Positions 2,380 through 42,141 of a stretch of DNA of 64,000 bases are shown here, one piece after another. Positions within the stretch are counted from its first letter, which is position 1; each line of letters starts with the position of its first letter. Source of the stretch: Lachnospiraceae bacterium (GTDB lineage: Bacteria > Bacillota > Clostridia > Lachnospirales > Lachnospiraceae); NCBI GenBank assembly GCA_016285135.1, contig JAEEQC010000002.1, positions 515 to 64,514 of the forward strand, in the 5' to 3' direction. Both the position numbers and the translations under genes were made by a program. The notes under the pieces were generated by a model. The model did no database searches and had not been told where the DNA came from. It saw nothing but the letters and a program-made list of their open reading frames with translations.

Positions 2380-4044
2380 TTAGTATACCTTCCATTCGTT
2401 GTTATTTAGATAGTTCTGTGCCATCTCTGTAGCGCTTTCGATGATCTCGTCGGGGTAACCGAGTATCGAAAGGAGCTTTATGGCATTTCGTGACACGGCG
2501 CGGCCTTCGCGAAGCGTATAATCGAAAATCACTTCGTTCTCGCTTACCTGCTCTTCGAAATGATAGTTTTTGTAGTAGTTTTCGAGAATATATGTAAGCT
2601 CTATATCATGTGTTGCCGCAAAACAAAGTGACTTTGAAGTTGCGAGCGATAAAAGAATCCTTGACGAAGCTGCGATCCTCTCAAGGGTGTTCGTTCCCTT
2701 AAGTACTTCGTCTATGAATACGAGCACGGGGACATCCTCGTTCATTCTTTCAATGATCCTTTTAAGTGAGCGGATCTCTACGATGTAATAGCTCTGTCCG
2801 CCGATGATATCGTCCTTGAGAGCCATCGAAGACATGATGTTAAAGAATGTCGTCTCATAACTCTTTGCAAGCGCCGTATAAACGGTCTGTGAAAGGATCT
2901 GATTGATTGCAACGGTCTTAAGGAATGTCGACTTACCGGATGCATTCGATCCGGTAAGAAGCACGCTTTTGTCTGTCGTAAACGATGTGGGGATCGGATC
3001 CTCGATAAGGGGATGGAACATTCCGTCTGCCGTGATCTTCTCTTCTGACGTAAAGGTCGGCTCACAGTTCCTGCCCATAAGGTCCCTGAAAGATGCGACT
3101 GCGATCATACTGTCAAGAAGTCCGATCGTTTCGAAGATCTCATTGAACGACTTCTCTTTGTTAAGAAACGTTCTGTACATGAGATTAAACTTGATAAGAT
3201 CAAGGTGAAAGAGCATCCTCATGTAATCAAGGAAGATCTGCCCGAGATCCGAGGAGTTCATACTGCTCGACGATACAAGCCATGCTCCGTGACGCATCCC
3301 GCTGAATTCCTTGATGCAGCTTTTAAGTCGGTCCATATAAGGCCTGATCTGTTCGTTTCCTGCAGATGTGATGGCTTTGGCAGAATCTAACGATCGAACA
3401 ATAAAACCGATTATGACAAAATAGTTCTCAACCTTTGTCTTGAACCTAAAGTAAGTGATGATGTTGGCAAAAAGCATCGCGACGGTACCGATGATACCGA
3501 CAGCGGGATATATGAAGATGTAAACGATCGACAAAACAAAGAGGAAATCGAGGAAGAAGTGAATCCCTGCGCCTTCAAGCACAGCGTTTTTAAGGCTGTT
3601 CATGTACTCGAAAACAGAGATCTTCTTCATGGTACCCATGTTCCCGAAATGAGCCGCAAGGTTATTCCTCAGTTCCTTGTCTTTCGAGAAAACGACAATA
3701 AGAAAACCGCGCTCTTTGAGTTTCTCGTCGGAGATCTCCGGAGTACGCAGAAGTGAGTAAAGATACTCCTCGCCGTATGCACTGTTGCATGAATTGATAA
3801 GATTATAGACATTGTCCATATTCAGATCATTCCATGTTATGTCATCGATGCTGTAAGGAGTCTGATGCTGTTTGAAGTAAAACTGTATGGCTTCCTTTTT
3901 TTCCGCCGTGAGTGTTTTCTGCGGAATCTTGCCGTATGCGTAGTCTACTTTTGCAAGCAGTTTTTTGATGTATTTCTTCCTGTCGTATATCCCCTTTATA
4001 AACAGAACAATAACAACTGCAAGCACAATAAGTGCTATCTCCAT
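2380..4044 (-). CDS. MutS-family ABC ATPase paralogue with transmembrane segments (no mismatch-binding domain)
   Basis: N-terminal hydrophobic helix MEIALIVLAVVIVLFIKGI and central TM block FFLDFLFVLSIVYIFIYPAVGIIGTVAMLFANIITYF. C-terminal MutS-type ATPase: LLTGSNASGKSTFLKTV (Walker A), GGQSYYIVE, VLVFIDEVLKGTN (Walker B), AATHDIEL. Confidence 0.8.
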   Translation of the reverse strand: MEIALIVLAVVIVLFIKGIYDRKKYIKKLLAKVDYAYGKIPQKTLTAEKKEAIQFYFKQHQTPYSIDDITWNDLNMDNVYNLINSCNSAYGEEYLYSLLRTPEISDEKLKERGFLIVVFSKDKELRNNLAAHFGNMGTMKKISVFEYMNSLKNAVLEGAGIHFFLDFLFVLSIVYIFIYPAVGIIGTVAMLFANIITYFRFKTKVENYFVIIGFIVRSLDSAKAITSAGNEQIRPYMDRLKSCIKEFSGMRHGAWLVSSSSMNSSDLGQIFLDYMRMLFHLDLIKFNLMYRTFLNKEKSFNEIFETIGLLDSMIAVASFRDLMGRNCEPTFTSEEKITADGMFHPLIEDPIPTSFTTDKSVLLTGSNASGKSTFLKTVAINQILSQTVYTALAKSYETTFFNIMSSMALKDDIIGGQSYYIVEIRSLKRIIERMNEDVPVLVFIDEVLKGTNTLERIAASSRILLSLATSKSLCFAATHDIELTYILENYYKNYHFEEQVSENEVIFDYTLREGRAVSRNAIKLLSILGYPDEIIESATEMAQNYLNNNEWKVY

Positions 4045-4111
4045 TACACGGTCCCCCTGAAATTTGTTATCAAAAATACATTGTAATGATATTAGTTTAG
4101 GATAAAAAAGT

Positions 4112-4153
4112 CAACAAAACCCGGGGCAGATATCTTCACGAATCTGTCCCGGG
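4112..4153 (-). terminator. Rho-independent terminator downstream of the NlpC/P60 gene
   Basis: 12-bp stem cccggggcagat / atctgtcccggg (one G-U pair) at 4120-4131 and 4142-4153. It is followed on the minus strand by TTTTGTT. Confidence 0.7.
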
Positions 4154-4176
4154 TAAAACATGTTTTTCTCAAACCA

Positions 4177-5292
4177 TCAGTCGAGGAAATTCTTGATCAT
4201 TGCAACTTTCATGCAATCAATATCTGAGATGATAACTCCGCCGGAGCTGCTGCTCTCATGGATGATCTTGCCGCCGCCCAAATAAATAGCGACATGACTG
4301 ATACGACCCTTTTTAAGTCTGTAGAATACAAGATCACCGGGCTTAGCCTCAGCATATGTAACCTTGTGGCCGGCAGATGAGGCTGCCTGTGTGCTCGAGG
4401 AACGGCCTGCGATATGTTCGAGATCAAAACCGCATTTCGAAAATACAGCACAACAGAAGCCCGAACAATCGGCACCCTTTGTTAAACTCATACCGCTCCA
4501 AACGTATTTAAGACCGATATGCTTCTTGGCCTCGAGAATGATGGATGCACGAAGAGCCGTTACGTTCTTGGAATCTGTCTCACCTAAAACGTCTTCTACG
4601 CTGCACGCATATGTGAAAGTCCTTCCGACGTCCACATACTTCTTCATGACATAACATGTTTCACCGTCGTACTCAACGGCTACCCATTCGTTTTTATCGG
4701 AATCGAGAACGATCTTGTTGCCCTTGACAACATTGACCGACTGACCGCTGAAAAGCTCCTCGACAAGATTATCTTTACTGTTCTTTTCGGGGGTGCTGCG
4801 GATGTTGAGAACCGGTGCATTGACAGTAGCACGGACAGGTGCTATCTCTTCTGCTTTTGCCTTGGCGCCGATACTTGTGTAGAGGTACTCCTTGGCAACG
4901 TAACCCTTAACGTCTCCGGAACTGATCTTAACAAAACCGTACTCGGGATCCGATTCAAGGAAGCAGATACCGTTTCTGGGAAGATAACCGACTATATCGG
5001 AATCCGTAGATGCTGCGGCACGAATATTGAGAAGTGAATCTACTTTTGCAAATGCAGCATTATCGGGAATCGAGTAATCATTTGAAAGAAGTGATGAAAC
5101 AAATGTGTCTTCGTCTTCGATGATGACATCGTCGGCGTTGTTGTAGAAATTATCGATAACGAAAGAAGCTCCGCAAAGAGATGTCTCGCCGGTGATCACA
5201 TCAGCGCGCACAGAAGTAAAGCCCATGAACAATACCATGGCACCTGTTGCTATAAAAAGATATGAAATCTTCTTACAAACTGACCTGAGCAT
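4177..5292 (-). CDS. Secreted cell-wall hydrolase: SH3b-like repeats plus C-terminal NlpC/P60 (C40) peptidase
   Basis: Signal-like N-terminus ISYLFIATGAMVLFMGF. Two SH3b-like segments (LNIRAAASTDSDIVGYL, LNIRSTPEKNS). C-terminal catalytic context GADCSGFCCAVFSKCG ... GDLVFY ... ISHVAIYLGGGKIIHES. Confidence 0.85.
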   Translation of the reverse strand: MLRSVCKKISYLFIATGAMVLFMGFTSVRADVITGETSLCGASFVIDNFYNNADDVIIEDEDTFVSSLLSNDYSIPDNAAFAKVDSLLNIRAAASTDSDIVGYLPRNGICFLESDPEYGFVKISSGDVKGYVAKEYLYTSIGAKAKAEEIAPVRATVNAPVLNIRSTPEKNSKDNLVEELFSGQSVNVVKGNKIVLDSDKNEWVAVEYDGETCYVMKKYVDVGRTFTYACSVEDVLGETDSKNVTALRASIILEAKKHIGLKYVWSGMSLTKGADCSGFCCAVFSKCGFDLEHIAGRSSSTQAASSAGHKVTYAEAKPGDLVFYRLKKGRISHVAIYLGGGKIIHESSSSGGVIISDIDCMKVAMIKNFLD

Positions 5293-5351
5293 CTCTAACC
5301 TCGCATTTCAAACAACACAATTGTTACGAAAATGTTACGATAGTAAGACAG

Positions 5352-5380
5352 ATTATATACCCTTATTCTACAGTTGTCAA
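5352..5380 (-). promoter_or_regulatory. Consensus sigma-70-type promoter for the NlpC/P60 gene
   Basis: The minus strand reads TTGACA, a 17-nt spacer, then TATAAT (perfect consensus). It lies immediately after the gpsA stop and ~55 nt upstream of the ATG at 5292. Confidence 0.7.
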
Positions 5381-5386
5381 CACTTA

Positions 5387-6400
5387 TCACCATTCAACGT
5401 TGTCGTGCTCTTTTGTTCTGTCTCTCATGAGCAGATCCGAAACTGCTTTAAGCGCAGGCTTGTGATCGAAAAGGATCTGGTTTACCTGCTCGATGATGGG
5501 CATCTCAACGTCGTATTTCTCGGCAAGTTTGAGTGCTGCTTTTGCACAGAATACGCCCTCTACGACCTGCTTGACCTCTTTCATCGCATCGTCTGCGGAC
5601 ATGCCTTTTCCGATAAGGAAGCCTGCGTTCCAGTTACGGCTGTGATGCGATGTGGCTGTTACGAAAAGATCACCTATACCCGAGAGTCCGCAAAGTGTCT
5701 CGAGCTTGCAGCCCATCTTGGTACCGAGTCTGCTGATCTCGGCAATACCTCTTGTCATAAGTGCGGCTTTTGTGTTGTCACCGAAACCGAGACCGTCCGA
5801 AATACCGGCTGCCAGTGCGATAACGTTCTTGATGGAACCTCCCAGACATACACCGATCATGTCACTGCTGGTGTAGACCCTGAATCGATCGGTCATGAAA
5901 GCGTCCTGTATAAACGTTGCCGTCTCACGTGATTTTGATGCGACTACAACTGTCGTAGGGATAAGTCTTGAAACTTCTTCGGCGTGGCTGGGGCCCGAAA
6001 GTACGCTGTTGTCTCCCTGAGGGATCTCGTCGTCGATAACCTCAAGCAGAGTCTTTAAAGTGGACTCCTCGATACCCTTTGCCACATTGACTGTCTTCAT
6101 ACCTGCTTTAATATACGGACTGGCCTCTCTGGATACACGGCGAACAAAAGGCGATGCAACGGCAAACACGATAAGAGAAGGATCGTTCCTTGTGATCGCT
6201 TCCTCAAGATCGTTGGTAAGTCTGACAGATTCCGGAAGCTTTGCGCCCGGAAGATTCTTTATCTCATTTCGATTTTTGGAAAGTTCCTGAATTTCAGTGG
6301 TCTGATCAGAAGACCAGAGACATACATCTGTTCCTTTACTGGCAAGAAGGATGGACAGAGCCACTCCCCATGTACCCGCACCTAAAACTGTAACTGTCAT
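5387..6400 (-). CDS. gpsA: NAD(P)H-dependent glycerol-3-phosphate dehydrogenase
   Basis: N-terminal Rossmann motif VTVLGAGTWGVALSILLA; typical length (337 aa); conserved plsY-gpsA neighbourhood. Confidence 0.9.
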   Translation of the reverse strand: MTVTVLGAGTWGVALSILLASKGTDVCLWSSDQTTEIQELSKNRNEIKNLPGAKLPESVRLTNDLEEAITRNDPSLIVFAVASPFVRRVSREASPYIKAGMKTVNVAKGIEESTLKTLLEVIDDEIPQGDNSVLSGPSHAEEVSRLIPTTVVVASKSRETATFIQDAFMTDRFRVYTSSDMIGVCLGGSIKNVIALAAGISDGLGFGDNTKAALMTRGIAEISRLGTKMGCKLETLCGLSGIGDLFVTATSHHSRNWNAGFLIGKGMSADDAMKEVKQVVEGVFCAKAALKLAEKYDVEMPIIEQVNQILFDHKPALKAVSDLLMRDRTKEHDNVEW

Positions 6401-34632: not shown

Positions 34633-35506
34633 AGTCTTCGCCTCCAAGTTCATAAATAAAGATCTCCTCAAGGGTTAAAGGAATAACGTCTAAGATCACC
34701 GGCTGGAATGATCTGAACACATCTTCTATCATTTTTGCTTCGCCGCGGATTATGTACGTATATACCGAAGCGTTGTTCTGTACATGAAGGATATCGAGCT
34801 TGTCCTTAAGCTCGGGTGCTTCACCGTTATAGACAACCTGATACTTGACAACACTGCCCTGAAGGGATGAAAGACTCTTCTCGAGCATCATTTTGCCCTT
34901 GTTCAGAATGCCGACCGTATCACACACATCCTCAAGCTCTCTGAGGTTGTGCGATGATACAAGCACTGTAGTGCTTCTCTCTGCAACATCCTGAAGGAGC
35001 AGGCTCCAAACCTGTCTTCTCATAACGGGATCAAGTCCGTCCACTGGCTCATCGAGGATGATGATCTCGGGATTACAGCAGATCGTAAGCCAGAAAGCTG
35101 CCTGCTTCTGCATACCCTTTGAAAGTTTACAGATGGGCTTATTAATGTTTATGGATGAAAAGACTTCCTTAAGCTTCTCAAAACGCTCCATATCAAAATC
35201 CTTGTATACATTCCTGTAGAACTTCATCATCTGTTTCACGCTTGCTCTGTTGATAAAGAACAATTCGTCGGGAATATATGAGATCTTCTCTTTGATCTTG
35301 GGATTCTCATAAACGGGTTCGTTATTGATACGAACCTCTCCCTTGTCTGCCTTGTATACACCTGTAAGGTGCTTAATGATCGTTGACTTTCCCGCTCCGT
35401 TCGGACCGACAAGTCCGTAAACACTGCCTTTCTCTACAGTCAGGCTAATACCGTCAAGCGCTTTTAAACCGTCAAAAGACTTTTCTACATTTTCTACTCT
35501 GATCAA
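34607..35506 (-). CDS. ABC transporter ATP-binding protein (ABC-2/bacitracin-type)
   Basis: Walker A GPNGAGKSTII, signature LSKGMQKQ, Walker B IIILDEPVDGLD, H-loop SSHNL. Start chosen at TTG 35506, 7 nt after AGGAGG; the track ORF extends to 35569. Confidence 0.88.
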   Translation of the reverse strand: MIRVENVEKSFDGLKALDGISLTVEKGSVYGLVGPNGAGKSTIIKHLTGVYKADKGEVRINNEPVYENPKIKEKISYIPDELFFINRASVKQMMKFYRNVYKDFDMERFEKLKEVFSSININKPICKLSKGMQKQAAFWLTICCNPEIIILDEPVDGLDPVMRRQVWSLLLQDVAERSTTVLVSSHNLRELEDVCDTVGILNKGKMMLEKSLSSLQGSVVKYQVVYNGEAPELKDKLDILHVQNNASVYTYIIRGEAKMIEDVFRSFQPVILDVIPLTLEEIFIYELGGEDYGIKDIII

Positions 35507-35571
35507 TGTGGTACCTCCTTTTTTTGCTCCCTTAATATTTTCGTAATGAATGAGAAATTGAATCGTCATAG

Positions 35572-35620
35572 TGTACTATCACTACTAGTACAGTTATAAC
35601 ACATCTGTTGTTTTTGTCAA
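35572..35620 (-). promoter_or_regulatory. Promoter plus palindromic operator upstream of the ABC/GntR cluster
   Basis: Minus strand reads TTGACA (35615-35620), a 16-nt spacer, then TATAAC (35593-35598). Immediately after comes the inverted repeat TGTACTA-N7-TAGTACA (35572-35592), a plausible autoregulatory GntR/YtrA site. Confidence 0.5.
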
Positions 35621-35663
35621 GTGGAAAATTGTAATTTCGGAGGGGGACTTATGTACTCTAAAC

Positions 35664-35702
35664 ACATAAAAAGAAGACTTGAAAACAAGCCTCAAGTCTT
35701 CC
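35664..35702 (-). terminator. Rho-independent terminator after the HD-GYP fusion gene
   Basis: Perfect 10-bp stem gaagacttga / tcaagtcttc followed on the minus strand by TTTTTATGTG. Confidence 0.75.
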
Positions 35703-35726
35703 ATGAAAAAACTATAGATCAGATTG

Positions 35727-38024
35727 TTACTTTGTTGCAGCTTCTGTAACAGCTTCCGGCGCAGGCTCAGGCGGTGTGCAGAAGCACTCTTTAGCCAGAC
35801 GTACAAGGTCTTCATCGAGCTTGCCCTCTCTCACCATCGCCTCAAGGATTGAGAAGATCTTCTCATTGCTGAGAGACTCCTTGCGGTAAGGTCTGTCGCT
35901 TGACGAAAGCGAGTCGAAAACATCCATGATCGTAAGGATCCGAACTTCGACAGGAAGATCATCAGCCGTAAGATGCTTGGGATAACCTGAGCCGTCAAGG
36001 TATTCATGGTGAGCCGCAGCAATGAATTTAACACGCTTATACTTGTCACCGAAAGTGATCTGCGACAGGATCTTATCCGTATATTCAACGTGCTGCTCGA
36101 TGATGTGACGTTCTTCTGCCGAAAGCGTACCTTTACGGATACGAAGCATATTAAGCTCGTCCTCGGTCACAAGATCCACCTTGTCATCGCCCCGGCCGTA
36201 GGAAAGACCTTCAAGGGAATTGACCTTTTCAAGCATATCATCCGGCAGGAATCCTGCTGTATTGACTTTCTTGATAAACTCCATATTCTCATGGAGGCTT
36301 GCAACCTGCTCATCAAAAGCTGCTTTATCGATCTGTCCGCCGGCAGCTTCTGTCTTAAGGATCTGTTCTATGAGCTTAAAGCGCATCTCCATGATCGGAA
36401 GCCTGTCGGAAAGACGGTCGGCCTTGTTCATTACATGAAGAGGAGTGATCATCTTGCCGACATCGTGAAGCTTCGCAGCCATGACAAGCTCTTCGCGGTC
36501 ATCATTCGAAATATCGTAAGGAACCTTATTCTCAAGGAAAAGATTCTGGAGGTATCTGCAGAATCTGTCGCAGTAATCCGCAACATGCATCGTATGGTTG
36601 GCATTATAGGGAGTGCGTGAGTCTATTGCGGTAACCATCGCACCCACGAAGGAATTCAACAGATCCTTGAGTTCTCGGATCATAAGCATGTTCGAGAGCG
36701 AAATGGCTGCCTGGGAAGCAAGTGACGATGTGATGAACTCGTTATTCTCACTGAAGTTGCAGACATCACCGTTTATATCGAGCGCATTTATGAGCTGCAG
36801 GACACCGATCACCTTGCCGTCGTGATTCTCGAGCGGAATGACAAGCATCGAACGTGTTCTGTATCCGGTCATCTTGTCATATTCACGCGGACCCTTCCAG
36901 TTGAATCGTTCATTGGTATATACATCATCGACGTTTATGGTCTCTTTATGCAACGCACAATAAGCGCAGACATACTGTTCTTCAAGCTTGACAGGAGGCA
37001 TATTGATCGGCTCACCGTTACCGCCCATATAAACGTTCATGGTATTGTTACGCATGATCATGAAGTGCAGCTTGCCCTCATTGAAGATGTAAAGCGTACC
37101 GGCATCGCAGTTCGCGATCTCCATGGCCTCACCGATGATGTTCTCAAGGAGCTTGGCGTAATCCTTCTGTATGGTAAGCTCACGACCGATCTCGAGGATC
37201 CTCTCCATGTCGTCCGTAACTTCCATATTGATACGGTTGCGCATGTGGAAAGGATAAAGACAGTTCTTAATGAGGTAGTTATACGACTTCATCAGTCTTT
37301 CATCATCACCGACCTCAATGAGCACCGAAGGCTTGTTCTTTATGAGCTGTCTGTAGTTAAGGATCGACCAGTCGATACTGCCGGTTCCGATCGCCATGTG
37401 CGAATCCTGATCCTTGTGATTGTCATTGGCATGGATATGCTTGATATAAGGAGCAAGCTCGTCAACCCATTCCTTAACCGAAAGATCCCAAAGATATGCA
37501 TGTGCTATATCAAAACAGATACCGAATCTAGGCTCGTCCCTTAAGTTCTCGGCTAACCTTCTGATAAGCTCCGGCGTATCGTCGTACATGTTCTCGACAT
37601 ATATTTCGAGCGCGGGGAAATCATCAAGAAGCTGCTTGTAAAAAGCAGTCATATCCTTGACCCATTTATCTCTGTACGGAAGGCTCTTAAATCCGACTAT
37701 ATAATTCGTATGGAAAATAACGGCACGACACTCAAGTCTGACCGCAGTTTCGCAGCTAAGATAAACTCTCTTGATGCTTGCTTCCCTGATCGCCGGATCC
37801 GGAGAATTGAGCACGATATCATAGAAGACGCCATGAAAGGTATCCTTTGTTCTGTCTCTGTCGAGTGCCAGATACTTTTGTATCGTGGCCTCGTATTCTT
37901 CCTTATCCTCGATAAGTGACGGATCAAAGAAATCATTGTATTCAAATACCGCATTAAGCTCTTTGGCAATACGTGCCCACTTCTCAACATCATTTCTGTT
38001 GGGAATGATATGAAGCTGGTTCAT
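35727..38024 (-). CDS. Three-domain fusion: xylose-isomerase-like TIM barrel (sugar phosphate isomerase/epimerase family) + GAF + HD-GYP phosphohydrolase
   Basis: N-terminal part: AVIFHTNY, YVENMYDD, FGICFDIAHAY, HIHANDNHKDQDSHMAIGTGSIDW. Middle GAF-like part: CDAGTLYIF ... RSMLVIPLENHDGKVIGVLQLINA. C-terminal part: KLHDVGKMITP and AAAHHEYLDGSGYP (HD...HHExxDGxGYP). Confidence 0.8.
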   Translation of the reverse strand: MNQLHIIPNRNDVEKWARIAKELNAVFEYNDFFDPSLIEDKEEYEATIQKYLALDRDRTKDTFHGVFYDIVLNSPDPAIREASIKRVYLSCETAVRLECRAVIFHTNYIVGFKSLPYRDKWVKDMTAFYKQLLDDFPALEIYVENMYDDTPELIRRLAENLRDEPRFGICFDIAHAYLWDLSVKEWVDELAPYIKHIHANDNHKDQDSHMAIGTGSIDWSILNYRQLIKNKPSVLIEVGDDERLMKSYNYLIKNCLYPFHMRNRINMEVTDDMERILEIGRELTIQKDYAKLLENIIGEAMEIANCDAGTLYIFNEGKLHFMIMRNNTMNVYMGGNGEPINMPPVKLEEQYVCAYCALHKETINVDDVYTNERFNWKGPREYDKMTGYRTRSMLVIPLENHDGKVIGVLQLINALDINGDVCNFSENNEFITSSLASQAAISLSNMLMIRELKDLLNSFVGAMVTAIDSRTPYNANHTMHVADYCDRFCRYLQNLFLENKVPYDISNDDREELVMAAKLHDVGKMITPLHVMNKADRLSDRLPIMEMRFKLIEQILKTEAAGGQIDKAAFDEQVASLHENMEFIKKVNTAGFLPDDMLEKVNSLEGLSYGRGDDKVDLVTEDELNMLRIRKGTLSAEERHIIEQHVEYTDKILSQITFGDKYKRVKFIAAAHHEYLDGSGYPKHLTADDLPVEVRILTIMDVFDSLSSSDRPYRKESLSNEKIFSILEAMVREGKLDEDLVRLAKECFCTPPEPAPEAVTEAATK

Positions 38025-38043
38025 TTACTCCTCCTCTTTACTA

Positions 38044-39882
38044 TCATTCTACCGAAACTTCTTCAGGCTCAACAATACCGACGACGTTATAAACCATGAT
38101 ACTCTTAGACTTACCCTTAAGAGGGATAGCACCGATCTCTTCTACCGTAAGTCTTCCGTCGAGACGTCTTAATACCTCTTCACTGATAAGGAGCTGTCCT
38201 GCCTTGGCATTCGACTCAAGACGCGACGAAGTGTTGACCGTATCACCGATAGCCGTGTAGTCCATTCGGAATTCACAACCGATATTACCGATGACTGCCT
38301 CACCGCAGTTTACACCGATACCGAAGTTGATGGTACGTCCGTATTTCTCCATCAGAGTTTCCTGAAGCTTCTGTCCGCTCTGAAGGATGTCCCAACCTGT
38401 ATGTACAGCGCGGTATACATAGTCATCGAGATCGAAAGGCGAGTTAAATACCGCCATACATGCATCACCGATGAACTTGTCGATCGTACCCTTGTTCTTG
38501 AAGACGGCATCCGTAACTACCGCAAAGTACTCGTTAAGGATATTAACGACTTCTTCAGGACTTAAGTTCTCCGACATTGTTGTAAAACCACGAATATCAA
38601 TGAATAAAACAGCGATGTCTTTGTTGCGTCCACCAAGGTTGAGCACGAAATCACCCTGACCTGCTACCTCATCAACAATCTGAGGTGCAACATACATCTT
38701 AAAGGCATTTTGAATGCTCCTCTTAGCAGATCTTGCTTTTACGTAATGGTGAATTACCATACCTATATACGAAAGTATGATAGAAAGCATAAACGAAAAC
38801 TGACTTATTACAGTTCCGTCATCATATAATGTTTTACCAAGTAACAGATTTGCACCGATAAAGAACACAGCGATTATAGCGTCAATCTGTAACGGGCAGA
38901 AGCACATTACGAAGAATATAAGTGCTGCTACCAATCCATAGATAATACCTAAAAGGATATAACTTGCATCGGTCTGGAATGCATGATCGTTCATCGCCTC
39001 GATAATATTTGCATGCACTTCGACACCATACATTGTAGCTGTATGATCTGAAGGGACAAAGAAATCGTCCTGTAATCCGTTAGCATATCCACCGATTAAA
39101 ACAATTTGATTTTTAAAGTATCTTGAATCCACATCACCGTTGTAGACATCTATAAGGGATACACGAGACACTTCTCCTCGTCCGCCTGAGTAAGAAAATC
39201 TGAATTGCCTGTGCTCATATTTAGTAAAATCTATCGATTCCAATCCGTTTTTTTCGTTATACAGTTTGTACGCAGCATAAGCAAAACTGTCCCCAGTAAA
39301 TTCTTTCCTTGTAAAACAGGGGATGAATGTTCTGATATATTTGTCGTATACAGGGGAATTATTCGTAAAGCCTTTTATAGGATTAATTGCTTCAAGTTCT
39401 GGATAAAGATCTCCTACTTTTACAATTTTGGCTGAGTCAAGCTCTTTTTTACCTGTACTGTCAGTAATAATTTCATCATCAAACTCAATCCTTGTTCCGA
39501 AAACAATATTACCGCATTTTTTTGCAAACTCAGCAAAAGATTTGTCGGATTCCACATCGCGATTTCCGGTAAAAACAATATCAAATGCAACTACAGCAGG
39601 TTGAGCATCATCACTGTAGATATTTCTGAGAACTTTTTCATAGATATCCCTGGTATAAAAATTCGGATGCCCAAGTTGATTCATGGTCTCCTCGTCGATC
39701 GCAATAATAGTCATGGGAATATCGAAAGGCCTATCATTCATATATGCGAGGTCAAAAATATAATTATCAATTACCTGGAAAATACCGAAATACTCAACGG
39801 TGAATATAGTAACCAGAATACCCAAAGAAATAAGAATTCGTCTAAGTAACGATTCCTTTTTTACCTTAAAATCAAACTTCAT
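38044..39882 (-). CDS. CHASE2-type membrane sensor fused to class III adenylate/guanylate cyclase
   Basis: N-terminal TM, an extracytoplasmic ~300 aa and 3-4 TMs (CHASE2 layout). Catalytic part: VLFIDIRGFTTMSE, IDKFIGDACMAVF, GVNCGEAVIGNIG, DYTAIGDTVNTSSRLES. Start chosen at MKFDFKVKK (ATG 39882) because the predicted promoter lies at 39945-39973. Confidence 0.82.
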   Translation of the reverse strand: MKFDFKVKKESLLRRILISLGILVTIFTVEYFGIFQVIDNYIFDLAYMNDRPFDIPMTIIAIDEETMNQLGHPNFYTRDIYEKVLRNIYSDDAQPAVVAFDIVFTGNRDVESDKSFAEFAKKCGNIVFGTRIEFDDEIITDSTGKKELDSAKIVKVGDLYPELEAINPIKGFTNNSPVYDKYIRTFIPCFTRKEFTGDSFAYAAYKLYNEKNGLESIDFTKYEHRQFRFSYSGGRGEVSRVSLIDVYNGDVDSRYFKNQIVLIGGYANGLQDDFFVPSDHTATMYGVEVHANIIEAMNDHAFQTDASYILLGIIYGLVAALIFFVMCFCPLQIDAIIAVFFIGANLLLGKTLYDDGTVISQFSFMLSIILSYIGMVIHHYVKARSAKRSIQNAFKMYVAPQIVDEVAGQGDFVLNLGGRNKDIAVLFIDIRGFTTMSENLSPEEVVNILNEYFAVVTDAVFKNKGTIDKFIGDACMAVFNSPFDLDDYVYRAVHTGWDILQSGQKLQETLMEKYGRTINFGIGVNCGEAVIGNIGCEFRMDYTAIGDTVNTSSRLESNAKAGQLLISEEVLRRLDGRLTVEEIGAIPLKGKSKSIMVYNVVGIVEPEEVSVE

Positions 39883-39944
39883 ACTTTTCCCCTTCTCCCG
39901 AACAATTATACGTATTTGCCATTTTTCAATTACAGCCAAACTTT

Positions 39945-39973
39945 ATTATATATCAAATACTATCCTTTCGCAA
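39945..39973 (-). promoter_or_regulatory. Putative promoter of the cyclase / HD-GYP operon
   Basis: Minus strand reads TTGCGA, a 17-nt spacer, then TATAAT. Confidence 0.55.
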
Positions 39974-40062
39974 ATATGATTTTTTGCATATAGTTCACTC
40001 TATTACTAGTAAAAAATCTCTATTTATAACTCCTAATGTTTTTTTTGTCATGTACAGATTAT

Positions 40063-40215
40063 AAACGGGCGCACGTAAAACACTTCCGGGCCCGTGTCGG
40101 GTCTCGCTACTTAACGAACGCAAGACTTTGTCGCAGCGTGAGTTTAGTAGCGTAAGGGGTACCCGACCCGGAGCGAAAGCGTGCGCCGGAAGTGTTTTAC
40201 GTGACAGCCCGTTAT
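40063..40215. repeat. ~150-nt GC-rich long imperfect palindrome (structured RNA or MITE/REP-like element), copy A
   Basis: Outer pairing aacgggc / gcccgtt. Perfect 17-bp pairing acgtaaaacacttccgg (40073-40089) / ccggaagtgttttacgt (40186-40202). Inner pairings gtcgggt / acccgac and cgctact / agtagcg. Contains a gcGAAAgc tetraloop hairpin. Confidence 0.6.
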
Positions 40216-40243
40216 TTTGCTTTTTACATCTATAATTTTACTA

Positions 40244-40277
40244 TATAAAAAGTGCCTCGCCATATAGACGAGGCACT
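40244..40277 (-). terminator. Rho-independent terminator after the GGGtGRT gene
   Basis: 9-bp stem agtgcctcg / cgaggcact followed on the minus strand by TTTTTATATAG. Confidence 0.75.
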
Positions 40278-40310
40278 CTATTAACACATAATGTTATTTG
40301 TTTTTTTTGA

Positions 40311-41321
40311 TCAGCACTTTCCGTTATCGAAAGCTTCCTGAACAGCAACTGCTACAGCTACCGTAGCTCCAACCATGGGGTTGTTACCCATTCCGATGAG
40401 ACCCATCATCTCAACGTGAGCGGGAACTGACGAAGAACCTGCGAACTGAGCATCACTGTGCATACGTCCCATTGTATCTGTCATACCGTAGGAAGCAGGA
40501 CCTGCTGCCATGTTATCGGGATGAAGTGTACGACCTGTGCCGCCGCCCGATGCTACCGAGAAGTACTTCTTGCCCTTCTCGTTGCACTCTTTCTTGTATG
40601 TACCAGCAACGGGATGCTGGAAACGTGTGGGATTGGTTGAGTTACCGGTGATGGAAACGTCAACGCCTTCCTTCCACATGATTGCAACGCCTTCTGTAAC
40701 GTCGTCTGCGCCGTAGCAGTTAACCTTGGCACGAGGGCCGTTAGAGTATGCTGTACGCTTGATCTCTTTAACTTCGCCCGAGAAGTAGTCCATCTCTGTC
40801 TCTACGAATGTGAATCCGTTGATACGGGAAATGATCTGAGCTGCGTCTTTTCCGAGACCGTTAAGGATAACCCTGAGGGGCTTCTTACGTACGCGGTTAG
40901 CCTTCTCAGCGATACCGATAGCGCCCTCTGCAGCTGCGAATGACTCGTGACCTGCAAGGAAGCAGAAGCAATCTGTCTCCTCTTCAAGGAGCATCTTGCC
41001 GAGGTTACCGTGTCCGAGACCTACCTTACGGTGATCAGCAACCGAACCGGGGATACAGAAAGCCTGAAGGCCTTCGCCGATAGCTGCGGATGCGTCTGCT
41101 GCTCTCTTGCAACCCTTCTTGATCGCGATAGCAGCACCTACTGTATATGCCCAGCATGCATTCTCAAAGCAGATGGGCTGGATCTTCTTAACAAGCGCAT
41201 AAACGTCGATACCGGCGTTCTTGCAGATGGTTTCGCATTCCTCGATAGAGGAGATGCCATACTGTGAAATGACCTTGTTGATCTGGTCAATTCTTCTCTC
41301 ATATGATTCAAATAAAGCCAT
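40311..41321 (-). CDS. GGGtGRT-family protein (conserved, function unknown)
   Basis: Eponymous motif VASGGGTGRTLHPDNMAAGPASYGMTDTMGR; 336 aa, as typical for the family; Gly/Ala-rich C-terminus GMGNNPMVGATVAVAVAV. Confidence 0.8.
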   Translation of the reverse strand: MALFESYERRIDQINKVISQYGISSIEECETICKNAGIDVYALVKKIQPICFENACWAYTVGAAIAIKKGCKRAADASAAIGEGLQAFCIPGSVADHRKVGLGHGNLGKMLLEEETDCFCFLAGHESFAAAEGAIGIAEKANRVRKKPLRVILNGLGKDAAQIISRINGFTFVETEMDYFSGEVKEIKRTAYSNGPRAKVNCYGADDVTEGVAIMWKEGVDVSITGNSTNPTRFQHPVAGTYKKECNEKGKKYFSVASGGGTGRTLHPDNMAAGPASYGMTDTMGRMHSDAQFAGSSSVPAHVEMMGLIGMGNNPMVGATVAVAVAVQEAFDNGKC

Positions 41322-41339
41322 GGTATAATCTCCTTCCTA

Positions 41340-42032
41340 TCATTCTTTTCTGGGATCGATGATCTTAACTGCATCATCAACACGACCATACTGTCCCTTA
41401 GCCTTTTCCCAAGCTGTAGTGGGATCGTCGCCCTTCTTGATGAAGTCTGTCATCTTTCCGAGGCTGACAAACTGGTAACCGATGATCTCGTCATTTGCAT
41501 CAAGAGCGATGCCTGTAACATAGCCCTCTGCCATCTCGAGATATCTGGGACCCTTCTTAAGTGTTCCGTACATTGTACCAACCTGGCTTCTGAGACCCTT
41601 TCCAAGGTCCTCAAGGCCTGCACCTACGGGAAGACCGTCATCAGAGAATGCGGACTGTGTACGACCGTAGATGATCTGGAGAGCGAGCTCTCTCATAGCT
41701 GTATTGATAGCGTCACAAACAAGATCAGAGTTCATAGCTTCGAGAACTGTCTTGCCGGGAAGGATCTCTGCTGCCATAGCAGCGGAGTGTGTCATACCCG
41801 AGCAGCCGATCGTCTCAACGAGCGCCTCCTGGATAACTCCGTCCTTTACATTGAGGGAAAGCTTGCATGCGCCCTGCTGAGGTGCACACCAGCCGATACC
41901 GTGTGTAAAGCCGTTGATCTCTTCAACCTTCTTGACCTTGGTCCACTTTCCTTCCTGAGGAATAGGAGCAGGATCATGCTTTGCGCCTTTGGCAACGGGG
42001 CACATCATTTCAACTTCGTGAGTATAGATCAT
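41340..42032 (-). CDS. IscU/NifU-N-like iron-sulfur cluster scaffold-domain protein with C-terminal extension
   Basis: GWCAPQQGACKLSLNVKDGVIQEALVETIGCSGMTHSAAMAAEILPGKTVLEA resembles the NifU N-terminal fold with conserved Cys. Start chosen at MIYTHEVEMM (ATG 42032, AAAGGAG RBS); the track ORF extends to 42122. Confidence 0.7.
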   Translation of the reverse strand: MIYTHEVEMMCPVAKGAKHDPAPIPQEGKWTKVKKVEEINGFTHGIGWCAPQQGACKLSLNVKDGVIQEALVETIGCSGMTHSAAMAAEILPGKTVLEAMNSDLVCDAINTAMRELALQIIYGRTQSAFSDDGLPVGAGLEDLGKGLRSQVGTMYGTLKKGPRYLEMAEGYVTGIALDANDEIIGYQFVSLGKMTDFIKKGDDPTTAWEKAKGQYGRVDDAVKIIDPRKE

Positions 42033-42112
42033 GTTGAAACTCCTTTCGTTTCTTTTGTTTTTATCTTGAACCAGACCTGCAAAAAACAGCCGGGTCTCGT
42101 TAACCGGGTGAT

Positions 42113-42141
42113 ATTTTCTCACATTTCTTTACAAATGTAAA
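42113..42141 (-). promoter_or_regulatory. Perfect 14-bp palindrome overlapping a putative -35, upstream of the IscU-like/GGGtGRT pair
   Basis: TTTACAAATGTAAA at 42128-42141. The minus strand gives TTTACA, a 17-nt spacer, then GAAAAT. Confidence 0.35.

Follow-up and report, generated by a model that had tools for sequence, protein, structure and literature searches.

The DNA analysed here is a stretch of 64,000 nucleotides (nt) from a Lachnospiraceae bacterium, referred to below as the window. It contains two co-oriented genes on its minus strand, the first for a predicted CHASE2 class III adenylate cyclase and the second for a protein in which a TIM barrel, a GAF domain and an HD-GYP domain are fused (Table 1, in window numbering). 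A sequence-only reading had described this pair as a discrete bicistronic unit with a 19-nt gap, a promoter-like element upstream and a terminator downstream. The open reading frames and the sequence confirmed the layout. The cyclase stop codon TGA (38046-38044) is followed by the ATG of the fusion gene (38024-38022), which has a strong ribosome-binding site (GAGGAGGAG) at 38036-38028, and no terminator was predicted in the spacer between them. In related loci the cyclase stop overlaps the next start, unlike the arrangement here. The terminator at 35702..35672 ranks as the strongest of the region. As for the promoter, the proposed element is indeed present, but promoter-like matches were no commoner in the region than in shuffled sequences (10 found, 12.3 expected), so that this candidate alone is weak evidence. 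The cyclase reading frame also extends beyond its ATG to a TTG at 39939. Rfam models applied to 35000-41000 at a permissive threshold revealed no riboswitch or leader RNA, and no curated NCBIfam family was found for either protein. The gene layout, the separate ribosome-binding sites and the terminator together support a discrete bicistronic operon.

Table 1. Features of the cyclase operon and of its predicted products, in window coordinates.
Feature	Position	Strand	Details
CHASE2 class III (IIIb-like) adenylate cyclase gene, predicted	38044..39882	-	612 amino acids (aa) from ATG
TIM-barrel + GAF + HD-GYP fusion gene	35727..38024	-	765 aa
Intergenic spacer	38025..38043	-	19 nt, holds ribosome-binding site GAGGAGGAG
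Ribosome-binding site of cyclase gene	39889..39899	-	GGGAGAAGGGG, ahead of ATG at 39882
Sigma-70-like promoter candidate	39945..39973	-	TTGCGA-17-TATAAT, 10/12 positions match; upstream of cyclase
Intrinsic terminator	35672..35702	-	13-bp stem, 5-nt loop, T-run; ends operon
CHASE2 extracytoplasmic sensor domain	38956..39816	-	Residues 23-309, Pfam
Class III cyclase catalytic domain	38095..38625	-	Residues 420-596; D429, R431, K469, D473, T543, D547, N550, R554
Endonuclease IV-like TIM-barrel domain	37266..38024	-	Residues 1-253; family signature FEYNDF 27-32
GAF domain, cyclic nucleotide-binding type by similarity	36750..37214	-	Residues ~271-425
HD-GYP phosphodiesterase domain, predicted	35775..36611	-	Residues ~472-750
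HD-GYP insertion, mostly helical	36132..36422	-	Residues ~535-631, ~90-97 aa

The cyclase matched the Pfam families CHASE2 (E 8e-33, 114.5 bits) and Guanylate_cyc (E 1.5e-28, 100.1 bits against a gathering cut-off of 21.9). A hydropathy scan placed one hydrophobic segment on the N-terminal side of CHASE2 (about residues 11-34) and three on its C-terminal side (309-327, 335-353 and 359-377), which is the layout of a CHASE2 membrane sensor, with one segment before the domain and a cluster after it. The metal-binding residues D429 and D473 and the transition-state residues N550 and R554, which belong to motifs noted in the sequence-only reading, are all present, and all eight of the catalytic-domain residues listed in Table 1 are invariant in 84/84 cyclases of the family. 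The closest relatives of the catalytic domain in the PDB are Synechocystis Cya2 (2w01; its Lys version is in 6fht) and Pseudomonas aeruginosa CyaB (3r5g, E 3.5e-30). K469, within the motif DKFIGD, aligns with a Lys in CyaB and in the Lys version of Cya2, a position at which wild-type Cya2, a guanylate cyclase, has Glu; T543, within DYTAIGD, aligns with the Thr of CyaB. Adenylate specificity goes with Lys plus Thr or Asp at these positions, and guanylate specificity with Glu plus Cys, Ser or Gly. Because the metal-binding Asp pair, the Lys, the Thr, the Asn and the Arg are invariant in the 84 cyclases and the Lys and Thr align with those of CyaB, an adenylate cyclase is the best reading, with cyclic AMP (cAMP) as the probable product, and the earlier assignment of the Lys/Thr pair is upheld. 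CyaB and other class IIIb adenylate cyclases have a closely similar catalytic domain with the same substrate pair; the window cyclase differs from CyaB in its CHASE2 sensor with one plus three hydrophobic segments and in the TIM-barrel gene downstream.

In the fusion protein, Pfam identified AP_endonuc_2 (residues 62-219, E 1e-22), GAF (290-443, E 3e-13) and HD_5/HD (E 2e-25), in agreement with the three modules proposed at first. The closest solved relatives of the GAF domain are GAF domains that bind cyclic nucleoside monophosphates (cNMPs), namely those of PDE5 (5.6e-22), CyaB2 (1.3e-14), PDE2A GAF-B (1.7e-11) and PDE10A (5.6e-9), and its block TGYRTRSMLVIPL matches TGYKTQSILCMPI of PDE5. 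The cNMP type assigned to this domain is thus supported, and the GAF domain is probably a receptor of cAMP. Its NKFDE motif can be traced as N371-E-R373-F374...D383-K384, in which N, F and D are kept, R perhaps takes the place of K, and K takes that of E.

The HD-GYP domain carries the HD motif H520 D521, the motif HHEYLDGSGYP (672-682, with GSGYP at 678-682) and the further catalytic residues H477, H645, D701 and D710-RPY; these residues, including H672, H673 and E674 and with the GSGYP counted as GxGYP, are invariant in a 28-sequence family alignment. The motifs are therefore not degenerate, a doubt that the sequence-only reading had left standing. They comprise the metal-ligand set (H, HD, H, HH and D) and the HHExxDGxGYP motif of phosphodiesterases of the HD-GYP type, which act on c-di-GMP or cGAMP. 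The region aligns to V-cGAP3, PmGH and PA4781. It is not a compact contiguous catalytic domain, owing to an insertion of about 90 aa between the motifs HD..GK and KGTL(S/T)AEE, which is common to the whole GAF-HD-GYP family. HMMER splits the domain at this point, the alignment to V-cGAP3 and PmGH skips it, and AlphaFold2 puts helices at residues 541-603 within it. In the full-length AlphaFold2 model (mean predicted local distance difference test score, pLDDT, 87.5; predicted template modelling score, pTM, only 0.51), a long continuous helix (426-470) connects the GAF and HD-GYP domains, and the linker between TIM barrel and GAF (262-269) is of low confidence. Allosteric connectors usually take the form of such a helix. 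Over its full length the fusion protein is matched best, among PDB entries, by PmGH of Persephonella marina (4mcw, E 6e-23), which has the same GAF-helix-HD-GYP layout and the metal-binding motifs but has neither the TIM barrel nor the insertion.

The TIM barrel is the part of the protein that most alters the initial interpretation. It had been called xylose isomerase-like, with either a sugar phosphate isomerase/epimerase or an apurinic/apyrimidinic (AP) endonuclease 2 fold. The sugar isomerase type is not supported: all nine metal ligands of endonuclease IV (Endo IV) are kept, so that the domain has the look of a phosphoesterase instead. Residues H69, H109, E145, D179, H182, H216, D229, H231 and E261 of Escherichia coli Nfo, mapped with its nfo gene (7/9 ligands by alignment to a hidden Markov model, 9/9 by MAFFT), correspond one-to-one to H64, H105, E144, D172, H175, H198, D207, H209 and E237, which are the predicted ligands of the TIM barrel and are invariant in a 65-sequence family alignment. 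The metal site, whose integrity had been in question, is thus predicted to be intact. A profile search of the PDB ranked MJ1311 first, then TTHB071 and then several Endo IV proteins, all above sugar isomerases. The AlphaFold2 model of the domain (pLDDT 95) gave the same ranking with Foldseek, in which sugar epimerases come lower.

Endo IV (Nfo), MJ1311 (3wqo; listed in the literature as a Methanocaldococcus jannaschii Endo IV homologue) and TTHB071 (3ayt, 3ayv) share with the TIM barrel the fold and all nine ligands of the trinuclear site. However, identity to these proteins is only about 16-22%, the family has signatures of its own (FEYN[DE]F and DT[LMI]HG[AV]F[FLY]D), and four segments of Nfo, which lie after E145, after H182, before the H216 strand and before D229, are absent from it. 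These segments may be the DNA-binding loops of Nfo. The NCBIfam model for Endo IV scored 25.8 bits against a cut-off of 244, short of an orthology-level match, and the genomic context is one of signalling, unlike the DNA repair of Endo IV. The best NCBIfam match was CbiR (E 2.6e-8, 33.7 bits, cut-off 105). CbiR, which belongs to the AP endonuclease 2 superfamily, hydrolyses a small-molecule phosphodiester in cobamide remodelling, and it provides a precedent for such chemistry in this superfamily, but the score lies far below the cut-off and no cobamide genes occur in any neighbourhood examined.

The three modules had been thought an unusual combination. This does not hold, as the TIM-GAF-HD-GYP architecture recurs in at least 40 protein clusters (90% identity), all of them from Lachnospiraceae. 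In addition, there are hundreds of two-domain GAF-HD-GYP proteins (about 490 aa) that are about 55% identical to the C-terminal two-thirds of the window protein. On their contigs the order is cyclase, standalone 260-aa TIM gene and GAF-HD-GYP gene, and at some loci the same three genes are shuffled. Because relatives encode TIM and GAF-HD-GYP as separate neighbouring genes, the window protein is a gene fusion, that is, the fused form of a neighbour pair conserved and widespread in Lachnospiraceae. The TIM family itself is larger. It comprises at least 990 clusters at 90% identity, and an exhaustive profile search returned 417 representatives at 50% identity with E <= 1e-30. Databases give its members no names other than 'TIM barrel protein' or 'sugar phosphate isomerase/epimerase'. 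Scanning species-representative genomes for the TIM signatures confirmed at least 562 stretches, and the best 80 of these are almost all from Lachnospiraceae, including Roseburia, Agathobacter, Coprococcus, Acetatifactor and Lachnospiraceae bacterium 3-1. Among the 417 representatives, the TIM barrel is fused to cyclase catalytic domains, to GAF-GGDEF and to GAF with its metal ligands kept, and in two loci (L010 and L083) it is fused to HATPase_c_2, an RsbW-like kinase domain. All the fusions observed (TIM-cyclase, TIM-GAF-HD-GYP, TIM-GAF-GGDEF and TIM-HATPase_c_2) have it at their N-terminus, and in the TIM-cyclase fusions it is followed by a helical segment resembling the transducer element of cyclases.

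We counted the neighbours, identified by Pfam, of 88 non-redundant TIM loci with flanks of up to 8 kb. A class III cyclase was present in 83 of them and stood directly upstream on the same strand in 79. The other partners were less regular: GAF-HD-GYP proteins occurred in 45 loci (fused to TIM in 13), FecR-domain proteins also in 45, Fic proteins in 18, and proteins with a cNMP_binding domain in 16, either as a small protein or as a SpoIIE fusion (L010). Only five loci lacked a cyclase, and two of these lie on truncated contigs. The core of these neighbourhoods is therefore the association of cyclase with TIM, not of TIM with HD-GYP. The fusions point the same way: because TIM is joined to GGDEF and directly to cyclase domains, its constant partner is the cyclase and not HD-GYP. 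As cyclase and TIM are constant and the cNMP reader or output varies, the job of the TIM barrel should concern the cyclase or its product rather than cyclic di-GMP (c-di-GMP). The substitution of GAF-GGDEF for GAF-HD-GYP in equivalent TIM fusions argues for c-di-GMP as the output, and as the probable substrate of HD-GYP. For the same reason, the proposal that the HD-GYP domain is the cNMP phosphodiesterase that resets the signal becomes less likely. A search of the literature found no description of the cyclase-TIM association.

Several loci depart from the common plan. In L010 (3003-8804), and also in L083, the genes encode FecR, a cNMP_binding-SpoIIE protein (PP2C phosphatase), a CHASE2 cyclase, TIM-HATPase_c_2, STAS and GGDEF; this variant module would be a cAMP-controlled partner-switching cascade. 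A gene for a Fic-domain protein of about 300 aa (AMPylase-type) lies directly upstream of cyclase and TIM in L013-L015 and 15 further loci, and none of these 18 loci has a GAF-HD-GYP gene within the searched flanks. L097 (1147-6408) has a TIM-GAF-GGDEF fusion followed by a TIR-domain protein and then by an 825-aa cyclase, and L096 (449-2827) has a small cNMP_binding protein followed by a soluble TIM-cyclase fusion. L021, L022, L024 and L025 (about 3900-5950 in each) have an extra GAF-HD-GYP gene upstream of the cyclase besides the TIM-GAF-HD-GYP fusion downstream, and thus two paralogous readers per locus. Three loci (L036, L038 and L058) combine TIM and GAF-HD-GYP but lack a class III cyclase within 6-8 kb. 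Directly downstream in L038 there is an insertion sequence element (DDE_3 transposase), and in L058 a LysM-metallophosphoesterase/5'-nucleotidase gene lies upstream. One protein of 551 aa (P0334), with a long Pro/Glu-rich tail, has most of its TIM metal ligands replaced (for example, HG to QG and FH to FA) and may be an inactivated variant.

The best explanation of these data is that the operon is a chromosomal two-gene signalling unit of a rumen or gut Lachnospiraceae bacterium. We suggest that the CHASE2 domain senses an extracytoplasmic cue, with a FecR-domain partner encoded in about half of the related loci, and that the cyclase then makes cAMP. Binding of cAMP to the GAF domain would switch the HD-GYP domain through the long helix between them, and HD-GYP would then hydrolyse c-di-GMP, parallel to the GAF-HD-GYP enzyme Tlr0485 considered below. 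The TIM barrel would be a separate catalytic module on a flexible linker, belonging to an unnamed family whose genes constantly accompany those of class III cyclases. It may act as a metal-dependent phosphodiesterase that turns the 3',5'-cyclic nucleotide made by the cyclase into the 5'-NMP, and would thus be the off-switch of the signal, for class III cyclases what EAL is for GGDEF. Endo IV cuts the 3'O-P bond, so that a 3'-OH and a 5'-phosphate remain, and the conversion of cAMP to 5'-AMP has this same polarity. We arrived at a messenger phosphodiesterase because of the intact Endo IV-type site, the flexible tether seen in the model and this matching polarity of cleavage, and we put it forward as a real possibility, although one held with less than even confidence, that the TIM barrel hydrolyses the product of the cyclase. 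The wider proposal is more tentative still: the 260-residue TIM family may be an unrecognized class of 3',5'-cyclic nucleotide phosphodiesterases that serves the class III cyclases of Lachnospiraceae and relatives as a dedicated off-switch, and the window protein may be a dual phosphodiesterase with a cAMP-sensing GAF domain placed between a cAMP hydrolase and a c-di-GMP hydrolase.

The pairs of GGDEF, a c-di-GMP synthase, and EAL, a barrel-fold phosphodiesterase that depends on metal, may offer an analogous logic, namely the constant pairing or fusion of a nucleotide cyclase with a barrel hydrolase of this kind. GGDEF domains and the catalytic domains of class III cyclases have a common fold. 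However, EAL and the TIM family are not detectably homologous, and the analogy would be functional.

The link from cAMP through GAF to HD-GYP, which the sequence-only reading had offered as a new wiring between cNMP and cyclic-dinucleotide signalling, is plausible. It is not new, because Tlr0485 is a characterized precedent for it, and two further systems, Lcd1 and Bd1971, already join cAMP to c-di-GMP signalling. According to the HD-GYP census paper and a later review, Tlr0485 is a GAF-HD-GYP c-di-GMP phosphodiesterase for which cAMP has been proposed as allosteric activator (2020 work cited there), Lcd1 (GAF-GGDEF) is a cAMP-dependent diguanylate cyclase, and Bd1971 is a cNMP-sensing EAL enzyme. 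Tlr0485 and the window protein both have GAF followed by HD-GYP, and both link cNMP with c-di-GMP signalling. The window protein, known here from its sequence, differs in its N-terminal Endo IV-like TIM barrel, in the HD-GYP insertion and in sharing an operon with a presumed source of cAMP. The more interesting part is the cyclase-associated Endo IV-like TIM family, for which our literature search found no description.

Some of our observations weigh against the phosphodiesterase interpretation and the signalling scheme around it. The substrate of the TIM barrel is a prediction from sequences and models, our literature search gave no function for its nearest solved structures, TTHB071 and MJ1311, and no cNMP phosphodiesterase is known to have this fold. 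The N-terminal position of TIM in its fusions to cyclase, GAF-HD-GYP and GAF-GGDEF is the usual place of an input or sensor domain, and in the TIM-cyclase fusions a transducer-like helical segment follows it; a regulatory role would account for this arrangement no less well than a catalytic one. Three loci, as mentioned above, have TIM and GAF-HD-GYP with no cyclase nearby. In the window protein itself, the NKFDE motif of the GAF domain is only partial and the insertion in HD-GYP is unusual. Finally, co-transcription of the cyclase and fusion genes is deduced from their arrangement.

The main alternative is that TIM is an input or regulatory module that binds a metal or a phosphorylated metabolite, or turns one over as an enzyme-sensor, and would modulate the cyclase and the GAF-linked outputs by contact or in cis. 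Its place at the N-terminus of every fusion, the transducer-like helical linker of the TIM-cyclase fusions and its translational coupling to the cyclase in most loci are all in keeping with such a role. However, the nine metal ligands are strictly kept across hundreds of diverged members, with degenerate forms such as P0334 being rare, which is more typical of an active enzyme, and the joint between TIM and GAF in the window protein is a low-confidence and probably flexible linker, not a signalling helix. We regard a regulatory TIM barrel as somewhat unlikely.

If TIM is an enzyme, it may act after HD-GYP or on another nucleotide, the candidates being the linear dinucleotide (pGpG or pApG) that HD-GYP leaves behind or another phosphodiester such as a 2',3'-cNMP. 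The chemistry would suit a phosphodiesterase of the Endo IV type, 45 of the 88 loci have GAF-HD-GYP next to TIM or joined to it, and the three loci just mentioned pair the two without a nearby cyclase. Against this, the remaining 43 loci have no HD-GYP in their flanks (up to 8 kb) and nearly all of them have a cyclase, and other fusions join TIM to the synthase domain GGDEF or straight to cyclase domains. This alternative appears improbable to us.

An ordinary sugar phosphate isomerase or epimerase, with metabolism as the process that cAMP regulates, would accord with the Pfam match to 'xylose isomerase-like TIM barrel', with the database names and with the sugar epimerases that appear lower in the Foldseek list. 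Ketose 3-epimerases have a smaller Glu/Asp/His/Glu metal site, unlike the nine-residue trinuclear set of Endo IV that is found in TIM. NCBIfam epimerase models scored only 17-19 bits against cut-offs of 300 or more, Endo IV-like proteins rank above the sugar enzymes both by sequence and by structure, and no sugar-metabolism genes recur in the neighbourhoods. We thus consider a sugar enzyme decidedly improbable.

It is more improbable again that TIM is a de-AMPylase that removes AMP, or another nucleotide, from proteins and works with Fic. A protein-AMP linkage is a phosphodiester, and the Fic gene directly upstream of the cyclase in 18 of the 88 loci would provide the partner, but in the other 70, the window included, there is no Fic and the cyclase and TIM persist. 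Pycsar systems have a PycC cyclase beside a cNMP-activated effector, with a cNMP-binding domain plus a transmembrane or TIR domain, in a defence context. The least credible alternative is such a Pycsar-type anti-phage system, in which cNMP is made on infection and TIM is the nuclease effector: the cyclase does match PADLOC PycC models (best E 2e-24), Endo IV is a DNA endonuclease and a TIR-domain gene stands beside one TIM-GAF-GGDEF locus, but the PycC matches reflect general class III homology, the fusion protein matches no PADLOC model, the cyclase is of the membrane CHASE2 sensor type and has the Lys/Thr pair of purine specificity, TIM is without the four Nfo segments, and the neighbourhood is of housekeeping type (SRP54, phosphoglucomutase, acyl-CoA synthetase) and syntenic across species, and we rejected it on the PADLOC result.

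The genes around the operon in the window are housekeeping or unrelated ones. Upstream are genes for a GGGtGRT protein, a NifU-like protein, a hybrid histidine kinase and phosphoglucomutase, and downstream are those for an ABC ATPase, a permease, a GntR regulator, acyl-CoA synthetase and SRP54. L006 and L016-L017 show synteny with this locus. The window was also searched for a FecR-like partner, a second cyclase and further copies of TIM or GAF-HD-GYP, and none was found. Directly upstream of the operon, at 40311-42122 on the minus strand, are the GGGtGRT-family gene (PF14057, E 2e-194) and, further upstream, a 260-aa gene; this pair also precedes the cyclase in L006, L016 and L017. The 260-aa gene product had no Pfam match at E <= 1e-5, and its counterpart in L016 gave a weak match to NifU_N. 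A GC-rich, near-perfect hairpin of about 150 nt (40060-40215) lies between the GGGtGRT terminator and the promoter-like site of the cyclase, with perfect arms of 18 nt at 40072-40089 and 40186-40203 and an RNA fold of -80.5 kcal/mol (z = -7.8). It matches no Rfam model, occurs as a single copy in the window and is missing from 95 related loci; it could represent a small RNA or what is left of a mobile element.

Knowledge of cAMP signalling in gut and rumen Firmicutes seems to be limited. The present analysis defines a conserved modular system of predicted cAMP signalling in Lachnospiraceae, including Roseburia, Agathobacter and Coprococcus, that is probably tied to c-di-GMP turnover. It also singles out an abundant and misannotated TIM family whose only consistent property is its association with class III cyclases. 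Three classes of cNMP phosphodiesterases are known. If the TIM barrel is a cNMP phosphodiesterase, it would represent a new structural class and would explain how these bacteria end their cAMP signals; if its role is regulatory instead, it would provide cyclases with a new type of input domain.

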